Shown here piece after piece: positions 4,897-62,979 of a stretch of 64,000 nt of DNA. The notes below the pieces were generated by a model. The model made no database searches, had not been told where the DNA came from, and saw nothing but the letters and a program-made list of their open reading frames with translations. The number at the start of each line of letters is the position of its first letter. The stretch's first letter is position 1. This DNA is from Candidatus Izemoplasma sp. (GTDB lineage Bacteria > Bacillota_I > Bacilli_A > Izemoplasmatales > Izemoplasmataceae), in contig JAIPGF010000003.1 of NCBI GenBank assembly GCA_021736205.1, positions 7,772 to 71,771 on the forward strand, written 5' to 3'. The translations under genes were made by a program, and so were the position numbers.

Positions 4897-5700
4897 TTAT
4901 GGCTGTAATGCACCAACTAAAACCAACCATGCTAAGACTGATTTAGCTACCAAACTTAAAATAATGTATCCGCGTTCTCCGTATAAATAATTTTTCCATT
5001 TTCCTTTTTTTAAATATTGGAAAATCATATTTACAGGAAATGAGTTAAATGCAATGAAGTACGTAATAACAATCGCCCAGACAAACCAAGGTGTCTCAGC
5101 GGTTGCTTCTGGTGAAGCGCCTGTCATATACAAAATAATAGCTATCCATGGTGCCAAGCCTGCAATGCTTCCCCAAATAAATGGTCCCCAATTAACATCT
5201 TCTTTTTCTTTACCTGAGTTTAATTGTTCCATCACAAGACCAAATAAATTCATTGATGCATTAACAAGAAAAATCAAAATAAGTGATGCGATATCCCATA
5301 CACCAAATAAATATGCTATAAGGACTATCATAATTGATGAACTAAGTGCATACTCAAACCATCTAAATCTATTAATACCTTTTTCTAGATCTTTATTATA
5401 GATAGTATTAAATTTCTCTGGCAGTGAGATTAAAGCATGTGCTATTGCAGAAATTAATAGAAACATAGCAACTAAAACAAAAAATGGTAACGTAAATGCC
5501 TCGGTTCGTGCAAAAGCTAAGTATCCTTGTCCAGGTCCTGTTTCAACAAATGTTAAATAATGCTGATAAAGTTGCATTTTAAAATCTCCAAGATCACTAA
5601 GAACTAATCCAAGAATAATCATAAGAATACCTTGAACTAAATGAAATGCACCCATAATGATATTGAATTTTCTTAAACTTTTTAAAGATGTTTTTTCCAT
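4897..5700 (-). CDS. heliorhodopsin (7-TM retinal protein with inverted topology)
   Basis: 267 aa. It aligns by eye with heliorhodopsin 48C12 along its whole length: FNIIMGAFHLVQ, FRWFEYALSSSIMIVLIA (counterion Glu), VNASMNLFG, and GERGYIILSLVAKSVLAW (Schiff-base Lys in SLVAKS). Confidence 0.85.
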   Translation of the reverse strand: MEKTSLKSLRKFNIIMGAFHLVQGILMIILGLVLSDLGDFKMQLYQHYLTFVETGPGQGYLAFARTEAFTLPFFVLVAMFLLISAIAHALISLPEKFNTIYNKDLEKGINRFRWFEYALSSSIMIVLIAYLFGVWDIASLILIFLVNASMNLFGLVMEQLNSGKEKEDVNWGPFIWGSIAGLAPWIAIILYMTGASPEATAETPWFVWAIVITYFIAFNSFPVNMIFQYLKKGKWKNYLYGERGYIILSLVAKSVLAWLVLVGALQP

Positions 5701-5731
5701 ACATATCGCTTCCTTTCATTTTTATAATTAT

Positions 5732-5740
5732 ATTATATCA
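5732..5740 (-). promoter_or_regulatory. extended -10 promoter element (TGaTATAAT) for the heliorhodopsin gene
   Basis: The minus strand reads TGATATAAT about 32 nt upstream of the ATG at 5700, with the RBS-like AAAGGAAG in between. No good -35 element is present. Confidence 0.4.
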
Positions 5741-5891
5741 TTTTTTTTAATAAAAATAACATCTTACACAAAAATATAATTAATAAAAATCTTTCGAAAC
5801 TTTTATTATTACCATTAAACAAACCAATTAGAGTACTTTAAGAGTTAAAGGAATATCCCTTATATCAGCAATATCCCAGCAAGTAAAAAAA

Positions 5892-5920
5892 TTGACCACT
5901 TTTGTTATTTTTTTTATAAT
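5892..5920 (+). promoter_or_regulatory. near-consensus sigma-A promoter (TTGACC-17-TATAAT), upstream tandem promoter
   Basis: TTGACC at 5892-5897, an exact 17-nt spacer, and TATAAT at 5915-5920. Confidence 0.45.
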
Positions 5921-6031
5921 CTTTATATTTAAGTAATAATGATTACTATTATAAGGGAAATAAATATTGTTTGATACGTCTCTTGTCAATACTCAAATAA
6001 ATTTTTTATTGACTTTTTTTATTTAAAGTCC

Positions 6032-6060
6032 TTGACATTTATATTATTCTACCCTATAAA
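6032..6060 (+). promoter_or_regulatory. sigma-A promoter (TTGACA-17-TATAAA) for the riboswitch-led fibre-subunit operon
   Basis: TTGACA at 6032-6037, a 17-nt spacer, and TATAAA at 6055-6060. It sits about 20 nt upstream of the aptamer-like element. Confidence 0.55.
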
Positions 6061-6079
6061 CATAATGAACAAAAAATTA

Positions 6080-6158
6080 AAGAAGGAAAAGGCATTCTTG
6101 AAGAAATTCAAGCGATCGCAAAACTATAGGGCCTGTAAAATGGTAGCCAGTTACCACG
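6080..6158 (+). promoter_or_regulatory. c-di-GMP-I (GEMM-I) riboswitch-like aptamer, copy 1
   Basis: A GNRA-capped hairpin TTGAA-GAAA-TTCAA (6098-6111) is followed by GATCGCAAAACTATAGGGCC, a short hairpin, and TAGCCAGTTACC (6144-6155). This matches the remembered GEMM-I core (GACGCAAAGC..GGG ... AGC.G.UUACC of Vc2). It shares CTATAGGG and TAGCCAGTTACC exactly with copy 2 on the other strand. Confidence 0.65.
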
Positions 6159-6183
6159 TATTTTTATGGTAGCTGGTTTTTTT
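6147..6183 (+). terminator. intrinsic terminator forming the expression platform of riboswitch copy 1
   Basis: A 10-bp stem CCAGTTACCA (6147-6156) / TGGTAGCTGG (6167-6176) contains one G-U pair. It has a 10-nt loop and then TTTTTTT (6177-6183). The 5-prime arm is the conserved 3-prime strand of the aptamer. Confidence 0.7.
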
Positions 6184-6224
6184 ATTGCTATATACAGACT
6201 TTAATTATGATTGGAAGTGATCAG

Positions 6225-6827
6225 ATGATTACACGGAGATTTGTTCAGATCAGTACAGTAGCTATATTATTAATAGGGTTTATCTTTACATCAGGTTCTG
6301 CGTTTGCTTATTGGAGAGAAGTTAATGTTTCCAGAGATGTAGAAATCGTAAAGATAGGAGAACCTATTGAAATAATAGTTGACGATATCTATTCTGAAAG
6401 TAATCTTCATTTAGTCCCAGAAGGATACATTATAAGTGTTCAAGATGTTGAAGAAGTCCAACTTGAATATGAAGTAAGTGTTTCTCGAGAACTAATAAAT
6501 ACTGTTAATTTAAATATACGAGCTGTTGATATTTTAATTGATGGTTCTGATACTTATAGCCATCTTGTAGATATATCAATTATGGGTTTAGGTAGCGAAG
6601 CTCAGTTAGATCTCTTTAATGAAGCTTTAACAATTTATGTTACAGTAAGACTAGAAGAACCATTTGATGAAGAAGAAGTTGTAGGGAAAAACTTAGATGA
6701 ATCCCTTGTGAATGTGGAAGACTCTGAGTTAGCTTATCAAACAATAACAGGTAAGACCATAACATTCACACTAAATTTTGAATTAGAAGTAAAAGAAATT
6801 TCTAGCAACGACAATTCACAGAATTGA
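6225..6827 (+). CDS. secreted protein with a SipW-cognate-type signal peptide (paralogue A of the fibre-subunit family)
   Basis: The ORF track starts at 6207. The ATG at 6225 (MITRRF...) follows GGAAGTGA and is the likelier start. The hydrophobic N-terminus ends in GSAFAYWRE. The C-terminus ITGKTITFTLNFELEV matches the ends of the 6873 and 9627 proteins. Confidence 0.7.
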   Translation: MITRRFVQISTVAILLIGFIFTSGSAFAYWREVNVSRDVEIVKIGEPIEIIVDDIYSESNLHLVPEGYIISVQDVEEVQLEYEVSVSRELINTVNLNIRAVDILIDGSDTYSHLVDISIMGLGSEAQLDLFNEALTIYVTVRLEEPFDEEEVVGKNLDESLVNVEDSELAYQTITGKTITFTLNFELEVKEISSNDNSQN

Positions 6828-6872
6828 TAAAATATAAAAAATAAATTAAAAAAATTAAAAGGAGAATAAAAA

Positions 6873-7403
6873 ATGAAAACAAAAAAATTAGGAATAGCGT
6901 TATTAGTAATGTTAGCGCTAGTAGTTACAACCGGAACATTTGCTTATTGGGCAAGTAGTGTAACAGACGGAACTAATACTGTTGGTGGGACTGTTACTGT
7001 TGGTACTGGTGAACAAGTTACAACTACTGTAACGGTAACTGCTCAATCTGATTTAAACGGCAATTTGGTACCTGTTGGATTTGAAGATGCAACAAAAGTT
7101 AATAATCTTGACTTAACGTTCCCAGTTACTTGGACTGCCGATCAAGCAGGTGCAGATGGAATCGTCGGAAATTTAAATGTAACAATTTCCAATTATGCTA
7201 TTGGTACACTTACTGGGACTGCTGTAACAGATATGTTTACAGTAACAATAACATCAGGTTCCGGAGCAATCACTGAAGGTGTATCACAAAATGTTATTAT
7301 CAATGTTGAATTTACAAATGAACCAACTGATTCAACTACATACAGCCAAGTTGCTGGAAACGACTTAACATTTGATGTTACATTTACAGCATCAGCCAAC
7401 TAA
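6873..7403 (+). CDS. secreted Thr/Val/Gly-rich protein with a SipW-cognate-type signal peptide, candidate major TasA-like fibre subunit (paralogue B)
   Basis: Strong RBS AAAGGAGA. The signal peptide ends in TGTFAYWASSV. The body is T/V/G-rich (TVGGTVTVGTGEQVTTTVTVTAQ) and has no Cys. The C-terminal motif is EPTDSTTYSQVAGNDLTFDVTFTASAN. Confidence 0.75.
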   Translation: MKTKKLGIALLVMLALVVTTGTFAYWASSVTDGTNTVGGTVTVGTGEQVTTTVTVTAQSDLNGNLVPVGFEDATKVNNLDLTFPVTWTADQAGADGIVGNLNVTISNYAIGTLTGTAVTDMFTVTITSGSGAITEGVSQNVIINVEFTNEPTDSTTYSQVAGNDLTFDVTFTASAN

Positions 7404-7442
7404 TAATTAGAAAATAAACTTAATATTTAAGGTGGTGATAAA

Positions 7443-7754
7443 ATGAGTATTAAAAAGAAATTACTGTTAGTATCTACTTTGCTACTGACACTTTTTGGTG
7501 CTACGTTTGTCACTGATAATTCTTATGCGTATTGGGCTTCAAGTATTTCATCTACTCAACAAACTACTACTGGTACTGTAACAGTTAGCTCATGGAATTT
7601 TATTCCAATTTGGGACAGTACAACAACCTATTATTCAGGTGATGTTGTTGAGTATAACGGATCTTATTATGAAGCTAAAAAGACAAATACAAATGAAGAA
7701 CCAGAAATTGCTAAAGGTTGGAGAAGTAACTGGACTCAAACTACAGTTAACTAA
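7443..7754 (+). CDS. small secreted protein: SipW-cognate-type signal peptide fused to a CBM5/12 (chitin-binding type) module
   Basis: RBS AAGGTGGTG. The signal peptide ends in NSYAYWASSIS. The tail WDSTTTYYSGDVVEYNGSYYEAKKTNTNEEPEIAKGWRSNW fits the W..Y..GD.V.Y.G..Y.A...P...W pattern of CBM5/12. Confidence 0.7.
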   Translation: MSIKKKLLLVSTLLLTLFGATFVTDNSYAYWASSISSTQQTTTGTVTVSSWNFIPIWDSTTTYYSGDVVEYNGSYYEAKKTNTNEEPEIAKGWRSNWTQTTVN

Positions 7755-7764
7755 ATACACAAAT

Positions 7765-7803
7765 AAATAGGCACATATAAATCCGTGCCTATTTATTTTT
7801 TTT
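7765..7803 (+). terminator. rho-independent terminator ending the fibre-subunit transcript
   Basis: Perfect 10-bp stem AAATAGGCAC (7765-7774) / GTGCCTATTT (7785-7794), then a T-run to 7803. Confidence 0.85.
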
Positions 7804-7804
7804 A

Positions 7805-7813
7805 TGCTATAAT
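7805..7813 (+). promoter_or_regulatory. extended -10 element (TGcTATAAT) for the signal-peptidase genes
   Basis: TGCTATAAT lies immediately after the terminator and 16 nt before the AGGAGG at 7830-7835. Confidence 0.4.
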
Positions 7814-7841
7814 ATCCTTAAAGAAACTTAGGAGGTCCTTA

Positions 7842-8393
7842 ATGATGAAAAATTCACAAATAAAAGAAAATATAACTATATTTGGATCAGCTATTTTAAT
7901 CGCAATATTGATCATATATATTCTTTTTCAATTGTTTATGCCTAAACTTACTATAAAAGTCTTTGGTGCTAAGCCCTATAACGTTATTACTGAAAGTATG
8001 GAACCTGTATTAGATGTAAATGATATCGTTGTTGTGAAACGCTTTAAAATAGATAACGCAGAAGAAGGCGATATTATAACTTTTAATGCAGATATTAATT
8101 ATGATGGCACAAAAGAAATTGTAACCCATTATATTTATTCTATAACTGGAACTGATGAAAATAGAGTTATTAGGACGAATAGACATTATGACAACATGAA
8201 CAATGCCGTTCCTGACACATGGTTCCTTAATGAGGACGATGTAATTGGTACTTACTGGTTTCATATTCCAAAATTAGGTTATGTTAGTGAGTTTTTAAAA
8301 AGTCCTTTTGGTATTGCTGCAATGATAGTCAATATAGGCGTTATTGTTGGTGTCGTATATCTAATTAAACAAGGGAATGAAGTTAAGGAATAG
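7842..8393 (+). CDS. sipW: signal peptidase I, SipW / ER-archaeal type (paralogue 1)
   Basis: The ORF-track start at 7785 lies inside the terminator. ATGATG at 7842 follows AGGAGG. Motifs match B. subtilis SipW: VITESMEP (nucleophile Ser), GDIITF, VTHYIY (His), GTYWFHIPKLGYV, and a C-terminal TM. Confidence 0.8.
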   Translation: MMKNSQIKENITIFGSAILIAILIIYILFQLFMPKLTIKVFGAKPYNVITESMEPVLDVNDIVVVKRFKIDNAEEGDIITFNADINYDGTKEIVTHYIYSITGTDENRVIRTNRHYDNMNNAVPDTWFLNEDDVIGTYWFHIPKLGYVSEFLKSPFGIAAMIVNIGVIVGVVYLIKQGNEVKE

Positions 8394-8402
8394 GTTTTTA
8401 AA

Positions 8403-8981
8403 ATGTCTAAAAATAAAAATAATATCAAGCAAAAACTTAAATTATTATACTTAAAAATAAAAAAGACCAAAACTACCCATTTTATATTTTTAGGTATTTT
8501 AGTACTCTCAGTCGTAAATATTTCTATTATGAGCTTATTTTTTTATGATAACGATTATAATTATAAAATAATGAACATATCTTATATAAGCGCCATCACA
8601 CCTGAACAAGATGTGAATGAAACATTGTATACCAACGTTATTAAAATCAAGGAATTCAACTTAAATAACGCAACTATTGGTGATTTAGTCATAATCTATG
8701 ATGATTTTAGTACCAATGAATACTGGGTAGAGAAAATCATCGATATAAATGAAACAACCAAAGAAATAACAGTCACTTATGATGAAGTTTCAAACAACAA
8801 CATTTCTTATAACAATATATATGGAACATACATTAAGAAAGCAAATATCTTTGGAACAATTTATCACACAGCTATGTTTACTAGAGGATATATCTTACTT
8901 GTGTTTAGTCACATTTTTATTCTAGCGGCTTATTATACTTATTTTATCCTCCATGTAAAGGAACCAAAAAAGCGAATTTGA
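8403..8981 (+). CDS. SipW-fold paralogue lacking the catalytic residues (predicted pseudo-peptidase)
   Basis: It has the same architecture as its neighbours: N-terminal TM, GDLVIIYDD, IYGTYIKKANIFGTIY, C-terminal TM. SAITPE replaces S(D/E)SMEP, and EYWVEKII replaces VTHY. Confidence 0.6.
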   Translation: MSKNKNNIKQKLKLLYLKIKKTKTTHFIFLGILVLSVVNISIMSLFFYDNDYNYKIMNISYISAITPEQDVNETLYTNVIKIKEFNLNNATIGDLVIIYDDFSTNEYWVEKIIDINETTKEITVTYDEVSNNNISYNNIYGTYIKKANIFGTIYHTAMFTRGYILLVFSHIFILAAYYTYFILHVKEPKKRI

Positions 8982-8990
8982 GGTGTCTAG

Positions 8991-9557
8991 ATGAAAAAAC
9001 ACATTGGTAAGTTCTTCATATATTTAATTTACACACTATTAATTAGTTATATTGTCATTACAGTGTTTTTTCCAAATAAAAGTACAGATATATTAGGCTT
9101 TCGTACATTCGTTGTTATATCAGATAGCATGGAGCCTAAAATAAATGTGTATGATATGGTTGTTATTAAAAAGGTCGATAAAGAAGACATACAAGTATCT
9201 GATATCATTACGTTTAAAGTCTATATTCCAGAAGTTGATTCAAAAAGTTATGTAACGCACTATGTTGACGAAATAATTATTAATTCTGAGAATGAGACAA
9301 TCTACAAAACACAGGGTGAATCGACTGCCGAAAATCCTGATGTTTGGACTGATGCAGATGGCAATGTTATAGATATCAGCTACAATGATGTCGAAGGAGT
9401 TTATCTTTTTAAGATTCCTAAAATTGGTCGGTTAATATATCTGTTAAGGGATCCTATCTTTGTCGGATTACTAATAGTAAATGGTTTCGTCATTTACTTT
9501 GTGTACAAATATATTAAAAAGTTACTATTTGATGCTAAAAATGAGAAAAAGGACTAG
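8991..9557 (+). CDS. sipW: signal peptidase I, SipW / ER-archaeal type (paralogue 3)
   Basis: RBS GAGGTG. Motifs are VVISDSMEP, SDIITF, YVTHYVDE, KTQGEST, GVYLFKIPKIGRL and a C-terminal TM. Confidence 0.8.
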   Translation: MKKHIGKFFIYLIYTLLISYIVITVFFPNKSTDILGFRTFVVISDSMEPKINVYDMVVIKKVDKEDIQVSDIITFKVYIPEVDSKSYVTHYVDEIIINSENETIYKTQGESTAENPDVWTDADGNVIDISYNDVEGVYLFKIPKIGRLIYLLRDPIFVGLLIVNGFVIYFVYKYIKKLLFDAKNEKKD

Positions 9558-9579
9558 ATTTTAAAATCTAGTCCTTTTA
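9550..9579. terminator. bidirectional terminator between the convergent peptidase and paralogue-D genes
   Basis: Perfect palindrome AGGACTAGATTTT / AAAATCTAGTCCT (9550-9575). It is flanked by A-rich sequence on the left and TTTTAA on the right, and it overlaps the TAG stop at 9555-9557. Confidence 0.7.
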
Positions 9580-9626
9580 ATATAAAGAAATAATATATAT
9601 TTAGAGAATACTCTTAAAGAATTAGG

Positions 9627-10133
9627 TTAATTTGCATAAAATGATACATTAAACATCAGTTGTCCACCAGCCAGTTGTTGGTACAACTCGTGGGTGCTTG
9701 GCTCGTTCATGGAAATACTTAATGAAACAATCACACGGATTGCTGATTCTTTACCCTCAAAAAGATGCTCTGAATAATCTAATGATTCTACTGTTTCTAT
9801 GTCGATATGGAAATTGAAAATAGCTTCAAGATTAGCTTCTGTTACAGTTGAATTAGAAAATACTAAATCAATTATTTCAGCATCCAACACCAAACCATCT
9901 TTAACAATCAGTTCATATTCATACTGTATAGTATGTACATCATTCACTGTACGAACTTGATTAGAAGGGATCAACGTGCTCTTGCTATCACTAATTAATG
10001 TTTCATTGATAATGTAGCTATCAGATGTTTCATTGATATAAACATTATCATCTTTTACAACACTTGCATAAATAGATGTTGTTGTTGAAAAAATTAAAAA
10101 AATCAAAACTAGACTTTTTAAGATGTTTTTCAT
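9627..10133 (-). CDS. secreted protein, paralogue D of the fibre-subunit family
   Basis: The ORF-track start at 10160 is unlikely. The ATG at 10133 (MKNILKSLVLIF...) follows AGGAG (10142-10146). LIPSNQVRTVNDVHTIQYEYELIV and EPSTHELYQQLAGGQLMFNVSFYAN parallel LVPEGYIISVQDVEEVQLEYEVSV and ITGKTITFTLNFELEV of paralogue A. Confidence 0.7.
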   Translation of the reverse strand: MKNILKSLVLIFLIFSTTTSIYASVVKDDNVYINETSDSYIINETLISDSKSTLIPSNQVRTVNDVHTIQYEYELIVKDGLVLDAEIIDLVFSNSTVTEANLEAIFNFHIDIETVESLDYSEHLFEGKESAIRVIVSLSISMNEPSTHELYQQLAGGQLMFNVSFYAN

Positions 10134-10160
10134 CTTAACCACTCCTATGGGGGTTAACAT

Positions 10161-10245
10161 CAGGTAACTGGCTATCTCGGTGAGATCCTTCTCAGTGAGA
10201 CCCTATAGCTTTCCGTCACAAGATTGCTCCTGCTTTGGCTTTATC
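10161..10245 (-). promoter_or_regulatory. c-di-GMP-I (GEMM-I) riboswitch-like aptamer, copy 2
   Basis: The minus strand reads GCCAAA-GCAGGA-GCAA-TCTTGT-GACGGAAAGCTATAGGGTCTCAC..GAGATAGCCAGTTACC. That is a GNRA (GCAA) tetraloop hairpin, a GACG.AAAGC core, a long P3-like hairpin and a 3-prime AGCCAGTTACC. The element order matches the Vc2 c-di-GMP-I aptamer as I remember it. Confidence 0.7.
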
Positions 10246-10297
10246 AAATATCAACACCATAGAAATGAAATCTCTATAGTTTTGATTTGATACTTTA

Positions 10298-10325
10298 ATT
10301 ATACTACATCTATGGTATTTGTCAA
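10298..10325 (-). promoter_or_regulatory. consensus sigma-A promoter (TTGACA-16-TATAAT) for riboswitch copy 2
   Basis: On the minus strand, TTGACA is at 10325-10320, followed by a 16-nt spacer and TATAAT at 10303-10298. Confidence 0.6.
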
Positions 10326-10364
10326 ACAAACAACGGTAATGACTTTTAAATAATCTTTTGGTTT

Positions 10365-11603
10365 CTATCTAATTATATCCAAAAAGACATCTACAATAGC
10401 CGGATCAAATTGTTTTCCACGATTATCAATTAATTCTTGAATTGTTTTTTCTTCAGATAATGCTTTTCGATAAATACGATCATTAGACATTGCATCATAC
10501 GCATCTACAACAGCTAAAATTCTAGATAATAATGGAGTTTCTTCCCCTTTTAGTTCTTTTGGATACCCTGTCCCATCCCACCGTTCATGGTGTGTTAATA
10601 TATAATAAGAAATAGCTTCTAATTGGGGCACACCGCTTGCGATTTTATATCCAATAATAGGATGCTGTTTCATTTTATTATATTCTACTTTAGTCAGTTT
10701 TCCAGGCTTTTTTAAAATACTATCATCAATACCAATTTTACCTATATCATGTAAGATAGCAAATAATTTTAAATCATTGATGTCATTTGTTTTTAAATCT
10801 AATTTATACCCTAATTGTGCGCAAAGTTTTTCCATTCGTGATGCGTGTTGCTCAGTTTCATCACTACGCTCAAACAAGGATGTTTTTAAAGATTTAACAA
10901 GTGAACTACTCGCACTTTTAACTAATAACAATTTATTTTTAAGCATACTATCTTCAGCATATGACAGCGTAGAATAAATATTTTTAGAATCAGACGTCGT
11001 ACTAAATCCCATAGCTACAGTCAGTTCTATATCTTTGAATATATTATAATCTAAATTTTTTCTAATTTTTTCAATCATATTTTCGATATGTTTTTTCTTA
11101 GTATGATAAAAAATGACACAAAACTCATCGCCGCCAACGCGCGCAATGAAAGTCTCATCAGATAAGCTATCTTTTAAGATTTCTGCATAACTTGAAAGTA
11201 GTTTGTCCCCATATTCTGAGGAATAAAACTCATTTATTAATTTTAACCCATTAATATCAGTAATAAGAATAGATGCTTCAATCTCCTGTGAATAAATACG
11301 GTTTAATTCTTGATCAAAACTACTTCTATTATGTACCCCTGTAAGTAAATCAAAGTTTTCTAACTGCACTATATTATCTTCAGCTTTTTTTATAAGAGAA
11401 ACTTCTCTTTTTACCAAATAATAGATAATCAAAGCAGAAATCACGATAAAAAATAACCCTTTTATTGTTGATGTATATCTATATTGATAAACATCATCGA
11501 TCACAACCAATAAGATATAATCTGATAAAAAAATCCAAGATGCGCTAAATAATAGGTAAATGATTGAAACTCTAAAGGCAGATGTAATATTTTTATTTTC
11601 CAT
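10365..11603 (-). CDS. membrane-anchored GGDEF diguanylate cyclase fused to an HD-GYP phosphodiesterase domain
   Basis: It has N-terminal TM helices and a literal GGDEF (ARVGGDEFCVIF). HD-GYP signatures are HDIGKIGI and HHERWDGTGYP. The ORF track starts at a GTG at 11612; the first ATG is at 11603. Confidence 0.9.
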   Translation of the reverse strand: MENKNITSAFRVSIIYLLFSASWIFLSDYILLVVIDDVYQYRYTSTIKGLFFIVISALIIYYLVKREVSLIKKAEDNIVQLENFDLLTGVHNRSSFDQELNRIYSQEIEASILITDINGLKLINEFYSSEYGDKLLSSYAEILKDSLSDETFIARVGGDEFCVIFYHTKKKHIENMIEKIRKNLDYNIFKDIELTVAMGFSTTSDSKNIYSTLSYAEDSMLKNKLLLVKSASSSLVKSLKTSLFERSDETEQHASRMEKLCAQLGYKLDLKTNDINDLKLFAILHDIGKIGIDDSILKKPGKLTKVEYNKMKQHPIIGYKIASGVPQLEAISYYILTHHERWDGTGYPKELKGEETPLLSRILAVVDAYDAMSNDRIYRKALSEEKTIQELIDNRGKQFDPAIVDVFLDIIR

Positions 11604-11960
11604 ATAAATCACTTAAGGGGTTTTAGATAACTACTACTCCCTTAACCTCCTATATATAATTATATCATTTAAATCACATATAAAAAGCAATATAAGTTTA
11701 CAGAAAACTTTTTTTATTGTTTTCTTTGTTAAATAAAAACAATACAGGTTGTTTAAAATCTGTATACTCTCTTATCGATGTAATTTTTATACTCATCTAT
11801 GAAATTTATAACTTTTTTTGATATATCTCTTATTTCTTATTATTTTTCCGAAAATACCATCATTAAGACAATTATATAATTAACTACAAATCATATAGAA
11901 AAAAATCCCAGAAACACCTACAACTTTTAGTAGATATGTTTTCTAGGATATGAATTTTAC

Positions 11961-12036
11961 TGGTGGAGAATACTGGGCTCGAACCAGTGACCCCTTGCTT
12001 GTAAGGCAAGTGCTCTCCCAACTGAGCTAATCCTCC
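11961..12036 (-). tRNA. tRNA-Val (anticodon TAC)
   Basis: The minus strand reads GGAGGATTAGCTCAGTTGGGAGAGCACTTGCCTTACAAGCAAGGGGTCACTGGTTCGAGCCCAGTATTCTCCACCA. It folds as a cloverleaf, the anticodon loop is CTTACAA, and the CCA end is encoded. Confidence 0.95.
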
Positions 12037-13149: not shown

Positions 13150-13225
13150 TGGTGACCCGTACGGGGTTCGAACCCATAAGTGCATGCGTGAAAGGCATGT
13201 GAGTTAACCATTTCTCCAACGGGCC
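13150..13225 (-). tRNA. tRNA-Glu (anticodon TTC)
   Basis: The minus strand reads GGCCCGTTGGAGAAATGGTTAACTCACATGCCTTTCACGCATGCACTTATGGGTTCGAACCCCGTACGGGTCACCA, with anticodon loop CTTTCAC. Confidence 0.95.
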
Positions 13226-13318: not shown

Positions 13319-13409
13319 TGGCGGAGTAGGAGAGATTTGAACTCTCGCGCCGCGTAAACGACCTATACCCTTAGCAGGGGCACCTCTTAAGCCACTTGAG
13401 TACTACTCC
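13319..13409 (-). tRNA. tRNA-Ser (anticodon GCT), long variable arm
   Basis: The minus strand reads GGAGTAGTACTCAAGTGGCTTAAGAGGTGCCCCTGCTAAGGGTATAGGTCGTTTACGCGGCGCGAGAGTTCAAATCTCTCCTACTCCGCCA, with anticodon loop CTGCTAA. Confidence 0.95.
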
Positions 13410-62821: not shown

Positions 62822-62847
62822 AAAAAAATAGAGAATTACCTCTGTTA
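62822..62847 (-). terminator. weak putative terminator (expression platform of the guanine riboswitch)
   Basis: The minus strand reads AACAGAG-GTAATT-CTCTATTTTTTT, a short AT-rich stem plus T7, directly after the P1 3-prime strand. Confidence 0.4.
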
Positions 62848-62849
62848 TT

Positions 62850-62919
62850 ATATCATAGTCCCAAATGTTACGGTCTGGGGTAGAGACAATCGAACCTTAT
62901 TTTCGATCATATATGATAT
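62850..62919 (-). promoter_or_regulatory. purine riboswitch, guanine-type (C at the specificity position)
   Basis: The minus strand reads ATATCATA-TAT-GATCGAA-AATAAGG-TTCGATT-GTCTCTAC-CCCAGA-CCGTAACA-TTTGGG-AC-TATGATAT. P1, P2 and P3 and the junctions match the B. subtilis xpt aptamer (UAUAAU..GUUUCUACC..CCGUAA..GACUAUG). The junction 3/1 reads AC, so it is guanine class. Confidence 0.85.
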
Positions 62920-62979
62920 CAACCAACTTCAATAGTATCAGAAATTATCCTAAAACACAATAAAATAAAAACACTTTCA

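Follow-up and report, generated by a model that had tools for sequence, protein, structure and literature searches.

A c-di-GMP-I riboswitch leader of Candidatus Izemoplasma with a predicted expression platform that brackets the aptamer and reaches into the coding region

How might a riboswitch control the gene that follows it when no compact terminator stands beside its aptamer? The question is raised by a locus in a 64,000-nucleotide (nt) stretch of DNA, here called the window, from Candidatus Izemoplasma sp. (order Izemoplasmatales; assembly GCA_021736205.1, contig JAIPGF010000003.1, positions 7,772 to 71,771), in which two aptamers of the cyclic di-GMP class I (c-di-GMP-I) type face each other from opposite strands. 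We were concerned mainly with the second of these, copy 2, which lies on the minus strand ahead of the gene for a small secreted protein. All evidence for the leader and the switch described here is computational. It leads us to lean toward an OFF switch whose expression platform would wrap around the aptamer, as suggested by conserved pairings and by models of two competing folds.

Copy 2 is, by its sequence, a genuine c-di-GMP-I riboswitch aptamer, for which c-di-GMP binding is predicted; score, helices P2 and P3 with a GNRA loop, ligand-contact nucleotides and closure of helix P1 all agree with membership of family RF01051. The cmscan match, at 10249-10160(-), scored 56.4 bits against a gathering score of 35 (E = 2.4e-8) and covered model positions 1-87, the full length of the model. 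A search of the whole genome (1.56 Mb, 58 contigs) recovered it again, together with just one other match, copy 1, at 6081-6158 (+) with 42.8 bits. An earlier inspection of the letters alone, which we call the sequence-only reading, had proposed a second riboswitch of this class on the opposite strand, closer to the family pattern than copy 1, and had named the covariance-model search as its check; the 2 scores bear it out. The order of elements that it had listed, GCCAAA, a 6-bp hairpin capped by a GNRA loop, GACGGAAAGCUAUAGGG, a long hairpin and UAGCCAGUUACC, is also that of the model alignment, where the first hairpin is P2 (GCAGGA/UCUUGU, with the loop GCAA on top) and the second an extended P3.

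Among the 22 complete orthologous leaders described below, each pair of P2 shows 4 to 12 double changes, and P3 is conserved. Leader nucleotides G54, A81-A83 and C129/C130 are invariant and are the equivalents of G20, A47-A49 and C92/C93 in Vc2, the c-di-GMP-I aptamer of the Vibrio cholerae tfoY leader; G54, A81 and C129 align in all 22 with the corresponding RF01051 model positions, and the roles of the pocket nucleotides G20, A47 and C92 are taken from work on Vc2 (PMC11705072). The equivalent of position 20 is G, and not the A20 of GEMM-Ib RNAs, which sense cyclic GMP-AMP (cGAMP). The top pair of P1, at alignment columns 61:143, is G:C in 22/22 and corresponds to G14-C93 among the Vc2 reference pairs (PMC11705072). 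The P3 stem of copy 2 is lengthened by a 15-nt insertion at 10176-10190 (-), which is absent from all 21 orthologues and lies outside the Rfam consensus, with posterior probabilities lowered there.

The sequence-only reading had also pointed to a minus-strand promoter of the form TTGACA-16-TATAAT. It is indeed present, scores 12/12 and is the top promoter-like site within 5500-11500; from its position, transcription is predicted to start near 10291-10293. In the orthologues, the -10 box lies 5-8 nt ahead of a conserved UAUCAAAUC. At the other end of the leader, the Shine-Dalgarno (SD) sequence AGGAG (10142-10146) and the ATG that starts at 10133 are separated by 8 nt, which identifies the regulated gene as that running from 10133 to 9627.

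With regard to the expression platform, the sequence-only reading had noted the lack of a T-tract terminator and had proposed in its stead a UUAACC/GGUUAA hairpin holding the SD in its loop. The first of these statements holds in that a terminator scan found no compact hairpin with a T-tract after the copy 2 aptamer; what it missed is a run of 7 U (U7, 10096-10102), conserved among relatives, which lies right after a box complementary to the transcript's 5' end and so abuts an outer, long-range helix. As for the hairpin, the inverted repeat is present (10132-10140 / 10152-10160), but we rejected it as a platform, since it is not conserved: against its -8.3 kcal/mol in the window, the 21 orthologues show unrelated shapes of -1 to -6 kcal/mol.

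When the whole leader was folded, it formed a single long helix (-57.2 kcal/mol, z = -4.76) in which the portion 5' of the aptamer pairs with sequence 3' of the aptamer. This panhandle, an interrupted duplex of roughly 40 bp in a leader of ~200 nt, is the minimum free energy (MFE) fold in the window and in ~19 of the 22 orthologues. In describing it we use the following segments, from 5' to 3': a, the 5' end of the transcript; b and b', the arms of a hairpin H2; c, the 5' strand of P1 with the start of the joining segment J1/2; c', the 3' strand of P1; d, the SD region; and a', the box. The outermost helix, H1, joins AAAUCAAAACUA at the transcript 5' end to UAGUUUUGAUUU, the 2 forming a perfect 12-nt inverted repeat (10277-10288 / 10100-10111), and within the window panhandle 5/5 SD bases lie in duplex. 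A second inverted repeat (10285-10292 / 10242-10249) links the same 5' end with the 5' flank of the aptamer; in the fold predicted without ligand, it is AUUUGAUA at 10242-10249 that pairs with the transcript terminus. Because a:a' and a:c share nucleotides, they cannot coexist, and the leader has 2 mutually exclusive, complete pairing schemes, a self-fold (a:c around b:b') and the panhandle (c:c', b':d and a:a'). Most orthologues carry a hairpin at the place of H2, with a different sequence.

We compared these pairings among relatives. Many of the 77 genomes in the same GTDB family gave a BLAST match to the leader. A protein search of the genome contigs with the 168-amino-acid (aa) product of the window gene found nothing; protein alignment proved too divergent as a query, and was replaced by a DNA pattern scan of the contigs. 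The comparative sets were the 22 complete orthologous leaders and, after the scan, 43 leaders in all, which come from Izemoplasmatales and Acholeplasmatales-type bacteria. In the scan, which took one genome per species, the aptamer subtype was almost confined to Izemoplasmatales, Acholeplasmatales-type genomes and other Mycoplasmatota.

RNAalifold recovered H1 unprompted from the 22-leader alignment. The helix is 95% paired there, as against 27-55% with the partner columns slid, and contains three compensatory pairs (A-U/G-C, 18 vs 4; C-G/U-A, 18 vs 3; C-G/U-A, 11 vs 6). P1 is 83% paired and has three covarying pairs, for example G-C in 17 vs A-U in 5, with four pair types at columns 56:148. 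The a:c helix is 88% paired (28-45% when slid) and shows one swap of A-U to G-C, 13 vs 7. The inner arms of the panhandle are variable and align poorly, and were therefore tested without alignment, by swapping arms between leaders. With H1 excluded, cognate arms of the 22 orthologues gave a mean of -20.0 kcal/mol and swapped arms -12.6 kcal/mol (0/20,000 permutations); with the non-coding linker and SD only, the values were -16.5 and -10.5 kcal/mol (0/20,000), and the result was unchanged with 17 dereplicated sequences. In 20 of the 22, the duplex takes in at least 3 bases of the SD core. Arm swaps on the 43 leaders likewise distinguished cognate from swapped partners both for a:a' (-13.7 vs -9.4 kcal/mol) and for a:c (-6.9 vs -5.7 kcal/mol), each with 0/20,000 permutations, also when 34 dereplicated leaders were used. 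Divergent leaders retain H1 with different sequences, as in AAACUAUUGC:GCAAUAGUUU, AAAGCUAUUGCC:GGCGAUAGCUUU and AAACCAAUGC:GCAUUGGUUU. By these sequence comparisons, all four pairings, H1, a:c, P1 and anti-SD:SD, proved conserved and co-evolving.

Two other sources of the complementarity were considered and rejected. In the 43 leaders, the counts of G·U wobbles and A·C mismatches are 19 and 3 in H1 and 19 and 5 in a:c, an excess of wobbles that argues for selection on the RNA of this strand; a palindrome or operator acting at the DNA level was ruled out by the H1 counts. Conservation of the box through its protein-coding content was also ruled out. In 22/22 orthologues the box falls on codons 9-13 with an identical reading frame. 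All 22 have TTG as the Leu codon 10, although in the rest of these genes it accounts for 13% of Leu codons; all 22 also have Phe-TTT at codon 12, and the 17 that encode Ile at codon 11 all use ATT there. A change of codon 9 from GUU to GCU (Val-to-Ala) is matched by A to G in the 5' strand. This synonymous-codon bias and the compensated Val-to-Ala change, together with copies located in untranslated regions (UTRs), exclude a coding explanation.

The UTR-located copies are those of leaders L099 (Paracholeplasma), L122 (Acholeplasmatales) and L094 (from a metagenome-assembled genome of Bacillota), in each of which the 5' end, aptamer, box and U-run all lie within the 5' UTR, the box and U-run ~40 nt ahead of the strong SD and the ATG of a GGDEF gene. 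Here the box and U-run are thus an RNA element in their own right, independent of coding. The GGDEF proteins of these 3 loci carry an uncharacterised N-terminal domain. The coordinates of the leader segments and of other features are collected in the following table.

Features of the copy 2 leader, its surroundings in the window, and related genes (positions are those of the window except where a leader handle is given)
Feature	Position	Strand	Remarks
Sigma-70-type promoter	10298..10325	-	TTGACA 10325-10320, 16-nt spacer, TATAAT 10303-10298
Segment a, transcript 5' end UAUCAAAUCAAAACU	10278..10292	-	Switching strand; partners c and a' mutually exclusive
Hairpin H2, ACUAUAGAGA-UUUCA-UUUCUAUGGU	10256..10280	-	-9.9 kcal/mol, z = -3.1
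Anti-SD strand CAUUUCUAUGG (H2 3' arm)	10257-10267	-	Pairs with SD region in panhandle
Segment c	10242..10255	-	P1 5' strand 10247-10255, G 10245 (equivalent of Vc2 G14), start of J1/2
Aptamer RF01051	10160..10249	-	56.4 bits; P2 with GCAA tetraloop, and P3
P1 3' strand	10153..10163	-	C 10163 pairs with G 10245; GAUGUUAAC (10153-10161) pairs with GUUGAUAUU
SD region CCAUAGGAGUG	10140..10150	-	SD core AGGAG 10142-10146; panhandle partner is anti-SD strand CAUUUCUAUGG
Start-codon hairpin UUAAGAUG-AAAAA-CAUCUUAA	10118..10138	-	8 bp, perfect; ATG 10131-10133
Segment a' UAGUUUUGAUUU	10100..10111	-	Codons 8-12: from the last base of 8 to the second base of 12
U7 run	10096..10102	-	Abuts H1 inside coding region; candidate termination site
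Regulated gene, 168-aa secreted protein with signal peptide	9627..10133	-	Beta-sandwich model
Terminator-like hairpin with A-tract and T-tract	9547..9578	-	14 pairs, then T-rich tail; between convergent units
GGDEF diguanylate cyclase gene behind UTR-type leader	L099:856-1776	+	307-309 aa (the 3 genes)
GGDEF diguanylate cyclase gene behind UTR-type leader	L122:180-1100	-
GGDEF diguanylate cyclase gene behind UTR-type leader	L094:201-1127	-

Stepwise folding of the window leader indicated that the self-fold comes first: it reaches -18.2 kcal/mol at 54 nt and stays the MFE structure until the box has been transcribed. A first model of accessibility, which used a crude SD window, discriminated weakly between states and was replaced by one with exact SD cores, applied to 39 coding-type leaders with either the 5' self-fold or P1 + H1 enforced. 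The mean probability that the SD is unpaired was 0.41 in the self-fold and 0.21 with P1 + H1, being lower in the latter state for 33 of the 39 leaders; for the window leader the values were 0.36 and 0.00. In the P1 + H1 state, the partner of the SD is the 5' arm, with a probability of 0.75. The modelled SD thus has a conserved partner and is freer in the competing fold, as would be looked for in an OFF switch that sequesters the SD, the effect being modest in size. The mean energies of the 2 states without ligand (-42.2 kcal/mol for the self-fold and -45.6 kcal/mol for P1 + H1) are near-equal, which suits a switch tipped by ligand binding. The start-codon hairpin does not tell the 2 states apart; analogous hairpins were seen by eye in several orthologues.

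The same models bear on the opposite sign of control, in which the SD would be masked locally without ligand, by the small hairpin mentioned above or by the aptamer 3' strand (...GUUACCU), and c-di-GMP would draw that strand into the aptamer and free the SD. An ON switch is what would usually be expected for a matrix protein, the local hairpin has the stability already given (-8.3 kcal/mol), and in the unbound model of the window the SD pairs with the aptamer 3' strand with a probability of 0.47. Over the 39 leaders, however, that pairing averages 0.15, so that it is not general, and the local hairpin is not conserved; the SD partner that does co-evolve is the 5' arm, which is contiguous with P1 and compatible with a ligand-bound aptamer, and with a:c, the sole competitor of the aptamer that is conserved, the SD is the more accessible. 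We regard an ON switch as scarcely probable.

Which of the 2 folds would the ligand favor? The a:c helix covers the G14 equivalent and the start of J1/2, and P1 is present only in the panhandle scheme; c-di-GMP should therefore favor the panhandle, and from this geometry and the contacts known in Vc2 (PMC11705072) we infer that the panhandle is the bound state. In the mechanism we propose for copy 2, the leader would, without ligand, fold upon itself as it is made, with a:c enclosing H2; P1 and the binding pocket would be blocked, the 3' half would be open, and the gene would be transcribed and translated. With c-di-GMP, P1 (c:c') would form and release segment a, and from P1 the helix would grow outward, the 3' arm of H2 pairing with the SD region and a with a', until the whole 200-nt leader was a panhandle tipped by the aptamer. 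Output would be through occlusion of the SD and probably also through intrinsic termination at the U-run; if both operate, masking of the SD would also block translation of the terminated message, which has no stop codon. Of the 2, occlusion of the SD is the better-supported output in our models. The OFF direction also fits the UTR-type relatives, where it would place a diguanylate cyclase gene under negative feedback.

A ligand-induced duplex might also act on the lifetime of the mRNA, either as a substrate for RNase III or by way of the 5' end, whose state could alter attack by RNase J or RNase Y. The interrupted duplex of ~40 bp would be of a suitable kind, the self-fold pairs the transcript from nt 1 onward, whereas the panhandle leaves 4 nucleotides free at the 5' terminus, and Vc2 is reported to control the stability of an upstream small RNA (bioRxiv 10.1101/617340). 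Control of lifetime gives, however, no specific reason for an invariant U-run or for an SD lying within the duplex, and as the function of the leader we consider it decidedly improbable.

Several observations weigh against the OFF switch that we have proposed. The modelled difference in SD accessibility is only about two-fold, and accessibility of the start codon showed no consistent difference between the states in the 39 leaders (p = 0.63). Nearest-neighbor energies slightly favor the panhandle even without ligand, so that an unbound ON state would depend on a kinetic trap or on ribosomes that keep it open. Among the 22 sequences, covariation in a:c is limited to a single pair, which may represent one or two evolutionary events, and the advantage of this helix in the swap test is small, 1.2 kcal/mol; the permutation tests were corrected for relatedness only by dereplication. 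Finally, H1 is atypical as a terminator, with 2/12 pairs G-C and ~165 nt enclosed, and the U-run codes for signal-peptide residues, Phe and Leu, in a genome that is AT-rich.

The last 2 points concern termination specifically. The U-run abuts H1 in 43/43 leaders, with 4 of its 7 U unpaired yet conserved; 41/43 have 5 or more consecutive U after H1, and 43/43 have 6-8 U there in some 8-nt window. Hence a U-run of the length usual in intrinsic terminators does lie directly after the 3' strand of the helix, whereas the helix itself lacks the compactness, G+C-rich stem and short loop of such a hairpin, and it was absent from the output of the consensus terminator scan. We therefore do not class H1 as a canonical terminator, and, given its AU-rich stem and the length of RNA enclosed, take termination at the U-run to be plausible but unproven. 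In the UTR setting of L099, L122 and L094, a terminator appears to be the most natural reading of the box and U-run.

These 3 leaders also bear on a simpler explanation, namely, that copy 2 is a translational OFF switch of the Vc2 kind, in which P1 and its anti-SD:SD extension do the work, H1 is a constitutive clamp or scaffold, and the U-run merely specifies Phe and Leu without any termination. Among the outputs, pairing of the SD with the 5' arm has the best support, H1 is weak, AU-rich and a poor terminator stem, U-rich codons suit a signal peptide in an AT-rich genome, and in Vc2 itself formation of P1 represses translation (PMC11705072). Yet in the UTR-type leaders the box and U-run, at ~40 nt before the SD of the gene, cannot mask that SD; the U-run keeps its place beside H1 in every leader, unpaired U included; and the 5' end has a conserved competitor in a:c, so that H1 is not constitutive. 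For these reasons we judge the simpler explanation unlikely.

If the proposed wrap-around switch does include termination, its architecture would be inside-out: the first 15 nt of the transcript would be the 5' strand of the terminator, their pairing with the 5' strand of P1 the antiterminator, and aptamer, SD and start codon would all lie in the 'loop'. The 3' strand of the terminator and its U-tract would be written into codons 9-13 of the signal peptide, and synonymous, even non-synonymous, codon choice would thereby be forced. We offer this architecture tentatively and would not rely on it. Were it true, the ligand would halt transcription after 40 nt of the gene and also hide the SD of the stub; the GGDEF-linked module in Acholeplasmatales-type genomes would be a direct, RNA-level negative-feedback loop for c-di-GMP; and, together with an ON copy, two paralogous fibre subunits would be under sign-inverted control in wall-less bacteria.

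The usual description of a riboswitch places the expression platform downstream of the aptamer, with the 3' strand of P1 as the switching element. A 2024 review distinguishes direct occlusion, interdomain docking and strand exchange as platform classes (PMC10907184), and literature keyword searches, this review included, did not find a comparable wrap-around arrangement. In Vc2, ligand-induced formation of P1 represses translation (PMC11705072), and copy 2 resembles it in several respects: the RF01051 aptamer, P2 with its GNRA loop, P3, the equivalents of pocket nucleotides G20, A47 and C92, G14-C93 kept as an invariant G:C, and P1 formation tied to repression, with an OFF sign. It differs from Vc2 in that P1 extends into the ~40-bp panhandle, the far end of which joins the 5' terminus of the transcript with codons 9-12; in that the aptamer has its competitor on the upstream side, with capture of the 5' strand of P1, and not on the downstream side, with capture of the 3' strand; and in that a U-run abuts the outer helix.

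Cd1, from the flgB leader of Clostridioides difficile, and Bc1 of Bacillus thuringiensis are c-di-GMP-I switches in which intrinsic termination gives the OFF response (PMC9262584, PMC11218506 and PMC10907184). These are Firmicute-type aptamers whose bound state favors the terminator, the same sign as proposed for copy 2, but their terminators are compact and wholly downstream of the aptamer, whereas the putative terminator stem of copy 2 is made of the 5' end and the coding-region box, with aptamer, SD and start codon between. Copy 1, of the Bc2 ON type, shares aptamer class and locus with copy 2 and has wiring of the opposite sign. Outside the riboswitches, in the maturation-gene leader of phage MS2 a complementary sequence upstream pairs with the SD, and hok mRNA combines 5'-3' pairing with metastable 5' hairpins. 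With these the copy 2 leader would share the masking of an SD from far upstream, across a structured insert, and a metastable 5' fold that forms first and decides the outcome; they contain no ligand sensor, however, while in copy 2 a second-messenger aptamer at the panhandle tip would choose the fold.

On these comparisons, copy 2 is a known sensor with what its sequence indicates to be a new platform variant, one that brackets the aptamer, is predicted to switch through the 5' strand of P1 and the 5' terminus, and reaches into the open reading frame. A keyword search of the literature found no paper on c-di-GMP riboswitches in Izemoplasma/Izemoplasmatales or Acholeplasma. If confirmed, the arrangement would widen the space in which platforms are sought, since leaders that seem to have none may have one upstream or inside the reading frame; it would provide a clear case of RNA structure constraining the codons of a signal peptide; and it would establish c-di-GMP RNA switches of opposite sign in Izemoplasmatales, a little-studied, wall-less lineage. 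Cultured relatives with the leader (Mycoplasmatota strains zrk2 and WC30, and Liberiplasma polymorphum) make such a switch testable.

The 168-aa protein under control of copy 2 has no family match in Pfam or NCBIfam. It is a distant paralogue of the 206-aa protein encoded by the first gene of the convergent operon (E = 9e-5 over 42 residues), and its AlphaFold model is a beta-sandwich with a predicted local distance difference test score (pLDDT) of 76; a fold search with the model gave a weak resemblance to TasA (E = 0.02, probability 0.77, template modelling score ~0.35). The convergent operon, which lies behind copy 1, is SipW/TasA-like, with three small secreted proteins, two SipW-type signal peptidases and a diverged third copy. 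The suggestion of the sequence-only reading that the 2 riboswitches differ in mechanism agrees with the copy 1 terminator, CCAGUUACCA-N10-UGGUAGCUGG followed by U7, in which the 5' arm, CCAGUUACCA, is the 3' strand of the aptamer; because of this overlap, ligand should prevent termination, giving an ON switch. By layout, with copy 1 ON and copy 2 OFF, the operon and its separate paralogue appear to be driven in opposite directions. That reading had taken the convergent pair to be unusual, a view that was not supported: the same 2 types, convergent and ~4 kb apart, occur in at least five other genomes (G020, G033, G038, G046 and G028) from three genera.

The terminator-like hairpin listed between the convergent units probably serves both as a bidirectional terminator. 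Directly upstream of copy 2 is a gene for a GGDEF + HD-GYP (HD_5) protein, at 10365-11612 (-), which ends 40 nt before the riboswitch promoter. We found no terminator-like site between this gene and the promoter, so that read-through transcripts with extra 5' sequence are possible, which would still include segment a.

Other RF01051 arrangements were seen among relatives. Compact hairpins of the type GGCAAC-U6-GUUGCC stand right after the aptamer in L124 (6588-6740), in the second matches of L097 and L126, and in L128, L135 and L118; they re-use the GUUGCC strand of the aptamer, are compact terminator or sequestrator platforms, and coexist with the panhandle type in the same genomes. Same-family relatives also carry two to four tandem RF01051 aptamers, ~90-120 nt apart (G004:C71 11664-11990; G022:C9 6445-6742 and 8839; G045:C21 86476-87565; G048:C86; G056:C7), which resemble the triple-tandem Bc3-5 arrangement of Bacillus thuringiensis. 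Elsewhere in the window, a heliorhodopsin gene (4897-5700 (-); PF18761, E = 2.4e-92) adjoins the c-di-GMP locus, an Rfam scan placed three tRNA genes at 11964-12036, 13153-13225 and 13322-13409 (-), and a purine riboswitch aptamer lies at 62836-62936 (-) (RF00167, 66.9 bits).

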